This document shows positions 3,866 through 32,003 of a DNA stretch of 64,000 bases, in pieces; the first letter of the stretch is position 1, and each line of letters opens with the position of its first letter. A model generated the notes under the pieces. It searched no databases. It was given only the letters and a program-made list of their open reading frames with translations, and was not told the DNA's origin. Position numbers and translations under genes: made by a program. Source of the DNA: a candidate division FCPU426 bacterium (GTDB lineage: Bacteria; Oederibacteriota; Muellerivitia; Muellerivitales; Muellerivitaceae); the NCBI GenBank assembly GCA_963771075.1, contig CAVYSE010000005.1, positions 64,001-128,000 on the forward strand, given 5' to 3'.

Positions 3866-3997
3866 CTCTTATCAAGAGTGGCGGAGGGACAGGCCCTGCG
3901 ATGCCACGGCAACCGATGCCCGGGTGAAAACCCGGGGATGCCAGGTGCCAATTCCTGCTTCGGTGCGATTTCCTATGAAACCGGGCGAAGATGAGAG
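3866..3997 (+). ncRNA. SAM-I (S-box) riboswitch
   Basis: CTCTTATCAAGAG..GGAGGGACAGGCCC..GGCAACC..GGTGCCAATTCC..AAGATGAGAG matches the S-box consensus. Confidence 0.93.
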
Positions 3998-14021: not shown

Positions 14022-14023
14022 TC

Positions 14024-21588: not shown

Positions 21589-21612
21589 AAGGTTGCTATG
21601 AGGCCATTCCTC

Positions 21613-21802
21613 AAGTTCAATTAAGCCCACCCGTCAGCCTTTTGGTTTCGCGGATTCACGCTGCTATTCGTGCTCGAGGCACAAGTTAAAAATTCGATAA
21701 TCCAGTAGGGAAGCCACCAGCTGTCCATCGTGCCTTACGGCACCACCAAATTCCGTGGTCATTCCAAAGGGATCGAATCACAAAACCGAGGCTGAAACCT
21801 CT
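21613..21802 (-). ncRNA. Putative bridge/seek RNA of the IS110 element
   Basis: Two parallel GTGCC-loop-GCAC-GA-7mer modules 60 nt apart; the 7-mers TGGACAG and ATAGCAG match target and donor junction. Confidence 0.75.
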
Positions 21803-22879
21803 TTAGCGCATGGGCCGATACACTTCCTTCCGAACCAACATCGTCCAAAGGTGAATCAAAAGCTTGTGCGCCATTGCCACAATCGCCTTGTTGACGTGTC
21901 CCGTATTACGGACCAGTCGACGAAAAACACGGTAGGCCTGGGTATCCTTTTGGATCCATGACCAGGCCGCTTCAACCAAGGTCGCTCTCAAAGTGCCTTT
22001 TCCGGCCTTCTGTAAATGGCCTTCCTTCCGGGTTTCACCGCTTTGCCTGATCCTAGGGGCCAACCCCACGTAAGCCGCCACTTGTTTGGCGTTTTCAAAG
22101 CGTTCCGGCTGGTAAATCTCCGTTAATACTTGCAGGGTCGTCACTTCGCCCACTCCTGGGTGGGTTCTCAGGATCTTGGCCTTTTTCTCGTAGGCCTTCT
22201 CCTTCATCATGACCCTCAAACGTATGTTCACGTCCTTGAGCTGCCTATCAAAGTAAAAAAGATCTTCCAATAGGCGATCCAAGGTGAACCTCAGGGCAGG
22301 TGGCAGTTCCATTTCCCGTAATATCCCAATGGCTTCGTGGGTCCAGTAATCCAACCCTCTGGGAGTTTTGAGCCCATATTGAAGGAAGAAGCTCTTGATC
22401 CTTTGTTTGGCCTTGCGTTTCTGCTCGACCATCGCGTTCCTCAAACGAACCACCTGCCGGTCAGCTTCTTCCTGGAGGGTTGGGATCGCCACCGCCTTCA
22501 GCAATTCTTTCTCCGCATACTCCGCCAGTTTGCTACAGTCCAAACGGTCGGATTTTGTTTCAAACTGCGACACGCGAGGAGTCTTGTGCGGGGCGATGAC
22601 ATCCAATGGGTATCCCTCCTCCCGAAGGCGGCGGGCCAGGCCAAAACCGGTAGGGCCTGCCTCGTAGACGACCTTTTTCAACCCCACCCGATAAGGCGCC
22701 AGGACCTTCACCACCGCCTCCCAGTCCGCTGTCAGGGACTTTGTTCCGACTTCCTTTCCGTTAATCCTGATTGCCATATAAATACTTCGTTTGTGGACAT
22801 CCAATCCCACAAACACAGCGTCCCGCTTGGATACCTCCTTGCCTCGGTATCCTTTTTTGCTAATCTGTTTCATGGCCAT
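21803..22879 (-). CDS. IS110 DEDD recombinase/transposase
   Basis: FVGLDVHK, YEAGPTG, KSDRLD, HPGVG, GLAP..QSG. Confidence 0.95.
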   Translation of the reverse strand: MAMKQISKKGYRGKEVSKRDAVFVGLDVHKRSIYMAIRINGKEVGTKSLTADWEAVVKVLAPYRVGLKKVVYEAGPTGFGLARRLREEGYPLDVIAPHKTPRVSQFETKSDRLDCSKLAEYAEKELLKAVAIPTLQEEADRQVVRLRNAMVEQKRKAKQRIKSFFLQYGLKTPRGLDYWTHEAIGILREMELPPALRFTLDRLLEDLFYFDRQLKDVNIRLRVMMKEKAYEKKAKILRTHPGVGEVTTLQVLTEIYQPERFENAKQVAAYVGLAPRIRQSGETRKEGHLQKAGKGTLRATLVEAAWSWIQKDTQAYRVFRRLVRNTGHVNKAIVAMAHKLLIHLWTMLVRKEVYRPMR

Positions 22880-22948
22880 TCCTCCTTGTGAGTTGCCTGC
22901 TCACCGGGACTAGTTTAATCCCGGCGGAGGAATGGCCTTCATGTTACC

Positions 22949-22976
22949 TGTCCACGACGGGGACCCGTCGTGGACA
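22949..22976 (+). repeat. 28-bp cassette site (IS110 target)
   Basis: TGTCCACGACGGGGACCCGTCGTGGACA, perfect palindrome. Confidence 0.95.
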
Positions 22977-31031: not shown

Positions 31032-31628
31032 TAAGATCCGCAAATGGCTAGACCGTTAAGAGTGCATTATGAAGGCGCTGTTTATCACGTTACCTCGCGG
31101 GGGAACGAGCGGAAAAACATTGTCCGGTCGGATAAGGACCGGGAATTGTTTTTGTGGGTATTGGCCCAAGTCGTGGAGGATCATCATGTGATGTGCCATG
31201 CCTGGGTATTGATGGATAATCATTACCACTTGTTGGTGGAGACGCCGGAAGCCAACTTGTCACGGGCCATACGGCACCTGAATGGTGTTTATACCCAGAA
31301 ATTCAATCGGCGGAATAACCGCAGAAAAAGGGGCCAGGCCTACATATTACACTTTACGTGAAACGCGTCTATCTTGAGGAGGGTCGGGAAGGTGTATGGG
31401 GAAAAGCCGGAGGAGGTATTGAGGGCGGGGCGCAGGAAAAGCGTGGCGCGGGCGGTGGCGATTTACCTGCTCAAGAAGGAATCGGGTTTGAGCCTGGGGG
31501 AAATCGGAAAAAGGATGGAGGTCGGTTTTTCGGCGGTGGGGAACCAATGGTCGAAGATCAAAAAAAGCTGTCCGAGGACCCTGAATTTGGCCGGATGGTT
31601 CTAAAGTGTAAAATGTAGGCCTGGCCCC
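30998..31628 (+). mobile_element. Defective REP-associated Y1 transposase element (RAYT/TIRYT type)
   Basis: YHVTSRGN, WVLMDNHYHLL (HUH) at 31044-31329; DnaA-C-like HTH at 31374-31604; middle missing; GGGG(T/C)CAGG ends. Confidence 0.8.
31330..31628. mobile_element. MITE-like unit with 26-bp TIRs carrying the transposase C-terminus
   Basis: GGGGCCAGGCCTACATATTACACTTT / AAAGTGTAAAATGTAGGCCTGGCCCC (25/26 complementary). Confidence 0.8.
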
Positions 31629-31844
31629 TATGTTACACGGAACCCGTCACCACCCAAAAACCCGCGGGGCTCGTGATTGACCTCTCCCGTGAGCCGGAGT
31701 CGAAGGGGCTTGTGACCGGGGTGAGGGAAATGGTTTTTCCGGGGAAAAAGGGTAACCCGTAAAACAATTTTTTAAGCACTTCAAGAAAAGATCCAATTAC
31801 AAAGAAATAATTTTTATGCTCTTGCCTGCTCATGGCGGCGGCTC

Positions 31845-32003
31845 CGAAAACGACCCCTTCAACCCGCCCCGCAGGGCGGTACGGCTGGTCGCGCCGTGAG
31901 GGAAGCGGTTGTTTTAGCGGCCAAACTAGGGTGACCACTAAATCGGGGGAAGTCCACACGACTAAAGGGGTAAAATAGCCGTTATCGGGTTGTCTACGAT
32001 GGG
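31845..32003 (+). repeat. 159-bp direct repeat copy A (leader-like, ends in a cassette-site left arm)
   Basis: Near-identical to 34075-34233. Confidence 0.9.

Follow-up and report, generated by a model that had tools for sequence, protein, structure and literature searches.

An insertion sequence that very probably couples an IS110-family recombinase to guides set to the edge of a family-wide palindrome

The described elements closest to the one analysed here are IS621 and ISCro4, which combine a recombinase carrying DEDD and serine residues with a two-module RNA (PMC11208160, PMC11208158; PDB 8wt6, 9t56), and the seekRNA elements of the IS1111 group, such as ISPa11, which targets REP sequences, ISKpn4, ISPst6 and ISPa25, which target attC sites, and ISEc11 (PMC11187229). 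The core dinucleotide of IS621 is CT, with an almost invariant T, and TT also works (PMC11208158); handshake pairing with the wrong partner, tested at both loops together, blocks exchange in IS621 and favours a locked state. IS1111 elements are described as having sub-terminal inverted repeats and 7+3-bp extensions, no true target duplication, a downstream non-coding region, a junction promoter and an RNA in which the complement of the top strand comes before the match to the bottom strand (PMC11187229). This reversal of guide order between IS1111 and IS110 RNAs has been taken as a hint of differing mechanisms (PMC11187229). Many IS1111 RNAs place their donor guides within a loop that is large or branched (PMC11208160), and the size range given for IS1111 proteins is 330–350 aa. 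Repeat-targeting IS1111 elements (ISPa11, ISKpn4), repeat targeting by IS621 and programmable bridge RNAs are already published.

The window, a 64,000-nucleotide (64-kb) stretch of one contig from a candidate division FCPU426 bacterium, holds an insertion sequence that is very probably a selfish bridge-recombinase element of the IS110 family, with IS1111-type ends and guides set to the edge of a palindrome. The element, its ends and its target are laid out as follows.

21593..21594, plus strand: target-derived core dinucleotide, TT here and CT in relatives
21595..22949, minus strand: insertion sequence of 1,355 bp, a single core included, IS110 family with IS1111-type ends
21595..21597, minus strand: right terminal extension, 3 bp (7+3 rule from PMC11187229)
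21598..21612, minus strand: right sub-terminal inverted repeat, 15 bp
21803..22879, minus strand: open reading frame of the DEDD/serine recombinase, 358 aa, with D27, E73, D111, D114 and S280
22871..22885, minus strand: internal inverted-repeat copy over the ribosome-binding site and start codon, pairing with the left repeat
22927..22942, minus strand: left sub-terminal inverted repeat, 16 bp
22943..22949, minus strand: left extension, 7 bp, starting with the donor core AG (22948–22949)
22949..22976, plus strand: palindromic array site of 28 bp, the target, outside the element beyond 22949

The product of the recombinase gene matches PF01548 (RuvC-like DEDD) and PF02371 (Tnp) above the Pfam cut-offs and scores 243 bits against the NCBIfam model NF033542, 'IS110 family RNA-guided transposase', whose cut-off is 140, and its D27, E73, D111, D114 and S280 are invariant or almost so among 44 relatives. 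The two inverted repeats (15 and 16 bp) differ by one indel and are bounded by extensions of 7 bp on the left and 3 bp on the right, with 208 nt of non-coding sequence downstream of the gene and 70 nt upstream. A second, identical copy lies on contig C9 of the source genome (G000), which carries two copies in total. Judged by sequence, the element agrees with IS110-family membership on every testable point and its DNA features agree with the IS1111 group; the assignment made in the initial annotation, an IS110-family recombinase with IS1111-type ends, is thereby borne out by the domain matches and the end geometry. It is not an IS1111-attC element: the 28-bp site lacks what we take to be the defining end motifs of attC, and a domain search found no integrase gene in the 64-kb window. 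The non-attC palindrome as target and the 358-aa protein set it apart from the described IS1111-group elements, with which it shares the sub-terminal repeats, the 7+3-bp extensions, the downstream non-coding region, a predicted junction promoter, a repeat-type target and the lack of a true duplication (PMC11187229). Unlike the published accounts of IS621 and ISCro4, the RNA lies downstream rather than upstream of the gene, reading of the substrate takes place on the strand that faces the gene, the inverted repeats are long (15–16 bp) and the donor guides sit in a multi-branch loop. The proteins are also distant (best E 1e-16), and G63 of IS621 aligns with a proline of the window recombinase in a region of uncertain alignment. 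A repetitive palindrome as target, in IS621 the REP, is common to both.

Relatives were gathered from genome, metagenome and viral collections, and 22 elements of at least about 37% identity with readable modules or ends were kept. The covariation analysis excluded loci whose identity is below about 37%, a group that takes in most of the 80 loci from metagenomes and the 20 from viruses, and also L007, L008 and L022–L025, whose modules or ends are degenerate, truncated or missing. One new copy came from 401 genomes of another phylum, and all plasmid matches were at most 36.5% identical at full length. In a tree with five named anchors only, and without IS1111 itself, the element falls in a clade of 16 rows (support 99/98) apart from IS4321, ISPsy16, ISShdy1, ISEc45 and ISHvo9, the deep placement of the clade being supported at 57/77. 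Four unnamed IS110 entries with a YEAGPTG motif in Supplementary Table 1 of Durrant et al. (rows 146, 979, 982 and 983) share motifs with the clade by eye, among the rows listed, so that the protein clade was already present in that survey; these rows carry no ISfinder name, and the accessible parts of the survey yielded no description of their RNA or target. A literature search, with the subscription literature mostly out of reach, found no paper on the element clade or the palindrome.

The core dinucleotide of the element is AG on the minus strand, and hence CT on the plus strand. In a tally made without any filter on letters, 17 of 18 elements have AG at the opening of the 7-bp left extension, seven nucleotides ahead of the left inverted repeat (GG in L112), while the base that precedes it varies (C in six, T in eight, A in three); the core is therefore not CA, as first annotated, a reading that lies one base off. 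Right junctions start with AG on the minus strand in 16 of 17 elements, AA being found only in the window element, in both its copies, and the plus-strand core is accordingly CT in the donor and TT in the targets of the window element. The TG reported at both ends is indeed present (21594–95 and 22949–50), but its interpretation as a target-site duplication was rejected, since it consists of the core T and a G found by coincidence in both target and donor. On the plus strand the target core occupies the left junction of the window and the donor core the right one, as predicted by a cut after the core. The 2-bp core is common to target and donor and is read by both guides, and the CT core, the invariant T and the tolerance of TT are all reported for IS621 as well.

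The non-coding region downstream of the gene encodes a predicted RNA with two modules, each consisting of a hairpin with a guide on either side.

21634..21795, minus strand: predicted bridge/seek RNA, its ends estimated by means of the outer helix
21744..21753, minus strand: 5' target guide, its sequence that of the plus-strand left arm plus core; counterpart of the IS621 LTG
21730..21743, minus strand: target-module hairpin
21721..21727, minus strand: 3' target guide TGGACAG, 7 nt with core; counterpart of the IS621 RTG
21719..21720, minus strand: target-loop handshake bases CT, the first matching the target, not the donor, here
21684..21692, minus strand: 5' donor guide, complementary to the left-end extension
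21670..21682, minus strand: donor-module hairpin
21661..21667, minus strand: 3' donor guide ATAGCAG, corresponding to the right end plus core
21659..21660, minus strand: donor-loop handshake bases CG

Both modules lie at the minus-strand positions first annotated, with their 7-mers 60 nt apart, and the 7-mers recur where they had been reported, TGGACAG at the junction of element and site (22948–22954) and ATAGCA at the right end (21594–21599). The proposal that they act as target and donor guides is upheld by the guide/target covariation across homologs that the initial annotation had named among its checks, whereas its picture of one guide per module missed the second, 5' guide. Covariation was assessed over 15–17 elements by 200,000 permutations of RNAs against sites, leaving out the core bases, with hand-set anchors for four elements and with the 5' guide scored as the best of three registers in true and permuted pairs alike. 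The 3' target guide matches the flank at 3.51 of 5 positions (permuted 1.66, n = 15) and the 5' target guide at 5.01 of 6 (permuted 2.62, n = 17), scores reached by none of the 200,000 permutations, although these elements are kin, most with a single site, and permutation values overstate their independence. After removal of the window element and its near-duplicates L009, L016 and L020, the counts per 200,000 were 0 for the 3' target guide, 0 for the 5' target guide and 249 for the 5' donor guide, and cross-controls were at chance. The window element itself scores 5/5 with the 3' target guide and just 3.5/6 with the 5' target guide over its own two sites. The guides thus covary with target and donor on both DNA strands, as expected of an IS110-family bridge recombinase. 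The handshake bases follow the same logic: in 12 of 15 elements the nucleotide that follows the 3' target guide is the same as that of the donor (70 of 200,000 permutations), and the nucleotide that follows the 3' donor guide agrees with that of the target at a rate of 0.63, compared with 0.29 when permuted (n = 17; 253 of 200,000), the respective counts without the window element, L009, L016 and L020 being 1,350 and 482 per 200,000. In the window element and in G051, the first of the target handshake bases has the target, not the donor, as its pairing partner; the target handshake bases are unchanged in runs X13, X15 and X16, and the oddity is therefore real and evidently not fatal. As in IS1111-group elements, the complement to the top strand stands ahead of the bottom-strand match and relatives appear to have undergone natural reprogramming of their guides (PMC11187229). 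The target loop also follows that of IS621 base for base (A43/G48, guide 50–58, hairpin, A67/G72-U73, guide 74–80, handshake 81–82), presenting a flipped A, a G five bases on, G-N, a 9-nt left guide, the hairpin, G-N, a 7-nt right guide and a 2-nt handshake, except that the window element has G for the second flipped A. Five elements (L018, L020, L111, L112 and L131) carry inserts of 23–79 nt between the two target guides, against the usual 15–18, which indicates that the inner hairpin tolerates additions.

The target of the window element is a palindrome present in 87 copies, in 26 groups, across the genome and absent from a shuffled genome. The palindromes are co-oriented inside clusters, and a same-strand stop codon lies within 60 nt before the palindrome in 60 of the 87 copies, compared with 13 of 87 in the opposite orientation. 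Insertion at the palindrome, as initially annotated, holds for both copies of the window element, which abut its 5' edge with different outer flanks, and for four of the five copies in G067, a genome with a 92%-identical element. The claim that the recombinase is specialised on the array survives only as a recent retargeting by a parasite, confined to the window element and this 92%-identical relative. The G067 copies use both palindrome ends, two at each, and one unrelated site. Family members at 62–64% identity target other sequences, G051 and G066 have palindromes but elements that differ in guides and in targets, and the element is missing from most palindrome-bearing genomes. One of the five G067 copies, L002, lies outside any palindrome and matches its own 5' guide at 8 of 8 positions. 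Public sequencing runs add further copies next to the palindrome in X13 and X16, including, in X13, a variant of 98% identity whose 1,361-nt unitig spans 21594–22954, stops precisely at the core at one end and just past TGTCCA at the opposite end, and has 29 differences, none within the guides. Three extra outer flanks occur in these runs as loose ends, and among the resulting five flanks (two of them genomic) arm position 7 is G in all five, position 6 is G in four and the first core base is T in four, in agreement with the prediction from the 5' guide of the window element. The 5' guide of the window element nevertheless matches only 19 of the 35 arm bases overall, and 3/7 and 4/7 at its own two sites, partial matches that fit the 'half-match' activity reported for IS621 (bioRxiv 10.64898/2026.08.31.748434). 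At the site in the window the 5' guide also fits the far end (8/9), a match that was discarded because it is absent at the C9 copy (score 4), and the count of a TGGACAGSTA pattern in four genomes was near its control and uninformative.

The weakness of this 5' guide match and the abundance of matching sequences elsewhere bear on a possible, though clearly less probable, reading in which the guides pick a short sequence but insertion further requires a hairpin or cruciform of the palindrome, or a protein that binds it, making the element specific for structure as well as for sequence. Only 114 of the 2,348 occurrences of TGTCCA, and 13 of the 81 occurrences of the 9-mer GGTTGTCCA, fall in sites, yet six of the seven copies in the two genomes adjoin a palindrome; guides alone hence do not explain the site bias, and selection or structure must add to them. 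ISKpn4 and ISPa11 likewise reside in potentially folded targets (PMC11187229). Against this reading, long open reading frames, where insertions would be purged, contain 57 of the 68 9-mers outside sites; furthermore, L002 inserted without any palindrome and with a full match to its 5' guide, and the loose-end flanks partly fit the 5' guide of the window element, with the G at arm position 7 in every flank. Guides set to the palindrome edge remain the preferred reading.

The donor module is central to whether this RNA works as a bridge RNA or, as an unlikely alternative would have it, as a seekRNA of 70–100 nt made up of the target module, with the protein recognising the ends through the inverted repeats and the donor module dispensable or used for excision only. 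An 82-nt RNA is reported as sufficient for ISEc11 movement (PMC11187229), and the donor-guide covariation is the weakest of the three, the 5' donor guide matching the left end at 3.73 of 5 positions (permuted 2.77, n = 15; 1 of 200,000), and at only 3 of 5 in the window element. In contrast, the donor hairpin and the 3' donor guide form the most conserved stretch of the alignment, guide and end change together in L033, L016, L017 and L005, and the donor handshake base varies along with the target. Hardly any variation is seen in the 3' donor guide, whose single, compensated change, in L033, turns guide and end alike into ATAAC. The downstream regions of 14 elements align to one common scaffold, for which RNAalifold returns a closing stem, in which one A is bulged, and two hairpins. 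Some 93.8% of cells in the consensus structure are paired, and 24 are compensatory compared with 8.3 in shuffles (0 of 500), a result that leans in favour of the structure, which was derived from the same alignment. With the guides held open, at a cost of about 6 kcal/mol, folds give an outer helix with the donor guides in a large or branched loop. The minus-strand fold that had been suggested as a check proved unremarkable by itself: the free fold of 21596–21810 buries the guides and has a z of −0.90 relative to shuffles, which is uninformative as structural proof, so that structural support for the RNA rests on covariation. At the gathering threshold, Rfam has no match within the element.

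Several features allow a mechanism to be proposed for bridge-directed movement of the element. The element would first circularise, and its joined ends would form a sigma70-like promoter driving the recombinase gene and the downstream RNA, from boxes predicted at the two ends.

21609-21614: predicted -35 box TTGAGG, within the right-end region of the element
22941-22946: predicted -10 box TAACAT, at the left end of the element

These promoter-like boxes share one register in 11 of 14 computed end-to-end junctions, with 8 of 12 bases in the window element, and a promoter scan of the linear element gave no sites. The tandem copy L010 provides a natural end-to-end junction. Contigs of runs X2, X13, X15 and X16 contain no end-to-end circle joint, which contigs cannot show to be absent, and the two RNA runs that carry the element do so as contigs only, which cannot reveal a small RNA and whose coverage is no proof of transcription. 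As covariation shows, the predicted RNA has a target and a donor module with a guide on either side of each hairpin, the two guides of a module reading the two DNA strands and overlapping at the 2-bp core. On the strand opposite to the recombinase gene the core reads CT/TT with an invariant T; together with the IS621 spacing of the target module, this leads us to expect an IS621-type path, with a top-strand cut after the core, handshake-aided strand exchange and resolution of the junction. The guides of the window lineage read approximately NNNNTGG-TT-GTCCA, the 5' edge of the family-wide palindrome, which comes after genes in cassette-like arrays; the element lands between genes, here next to a group II intron, exploiting the array and not building it. 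The left repeat and its internal copy fold together at −39.9 kcal/mol, with 10–11 of 12 positions complementary in 10 of 12 elements, and their pairing is likely to guard against read-through translation. Across 22871–22942 of the window, the repeat pairing over the ribosome-binding site keeps compensating changes in relatives.

Exploitation of the array may be set against a scenario, which we consider very improbable, in which the recombinase is, or was, the cassette enzyme of the array and recombines palindrome ends. The window contains no integrase gene, and none of the eight tyrosine-recombinase matches of the genome was established as an integron integrase; two arrays have one site-to-site unit in common (89% identical), and a 17-bp relic of the left end adjoins another site, on contig C11. 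The palindrome, however, is present in 25 of 30 family genomes (and in none of 67 genomes outside the order), while the element clade is present in three of the 30 and palindrome guides in only one of those; the donor guides match the ends of the element itself and not the site, and the guides read 6 of the 28 conserved site bases. This distribution and the recent retargeting identify the element as a parasite of the array and not its recombinase. There is an equally slight chance that the recombinase also pairs two palindrome ends and so moves whole cassettes; if true, an RNA-guided IS110 enzyme would serve, at least some of the time, as integrase for a cassette array of the non-attC type. 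That the 7-mer matches are fortuitous can practically be dismissed: seven-base matches are short and TGGACA alone arises in 4.6% of shuffles, but when the non-coding region (190 nt) is shuffled 100,000 times, both annotated words turn up in just 0.05% of cases (a joint frequency of 0.0005), and the covariation over 15–17 elements refutes it.

The element adds a deep-branching and apparently unnamed clade of bridge recombinases. Its RNA is compact, the four guides and the handshake bases are legible in the sequence itself, and there are about 20 naturally reprogrammed versions. The clade constitutes a usable pool for tool screening, a purpose that IS621, ISCro4 and ISEc11 already serve. Within it, the reversal of guide order disappears when the other strand is considered, and the CT core and the IS621 loop spacing reappear. 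The element also marks the palindrome as a common landing site of at least three mobile elements.

Near-identical group II introns of about 1,980 bp occupy positions 14022, 18591 and 23691 of the window and about eight other places in the genome, beginning just past the 3' edge of the palindrome, the edge opposite to that used by the insertion sequence. The 355-bp end of a larger repeated element, with an open reading frame of 500–700 aa, stops right before the palindrome in five places.

31637-31990, window: 355-bp repeat end
C3:1792-2145: 355-bp repeat end
C9:1495-1848: 355-bp repeat end
C13:208-560: 355-bp repeat end
C21:2500-2852: 355-bp repeat end

A motif in this end may resemble an IS3-type terminal repeat, and at C9 the insertion sequence lies between the repeat end and the palindrome. 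A 17-bp near-copy of the left end of the insertion sequence, with one mismatch and no element body, adjoins a palindrome at G000:C11:136339, is also seen in run X2 and is probably the relic of an older insertion. The site-to-site unit common to two arrays comprises C3:166305-166945 and C21:4957-5607 (89% identical). Other members of the clade (L008, L010, L012, L016, L089/L094/L097) also sit in repeats, including long palindromes, and the elements of G051 in runs of a GAATT-type heptamer; we take these other targets to be REP-like. In all four full G067 copies (L001–L004) the last 18 bp of the right end are tandemly duplicated, in shortened form in L001, as though at some time a donor had undergone recombination with its own end. 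Another IS1111-type element (1,329 bp, protein 27% identical) occurs at G000:C21:10481-11809 and in six more copies; it has a TG core and guide-like matches in the same layout, and its target is a different sequence. The Y1 transposase fragment at 31044 scores 55 bits, below the RAYT cut-off of 80. Between 34206 and 40281 the window contains a second palindrome family, with three copies of about 37 bp that start right after TTGTC-like edges and sit among toxin-antitoxin cassettes and two DDE insertion sequences, and at 3866–3997 a SAM riboswitch (RF00162) precedes a gene for a PLP-dependent enzyme.
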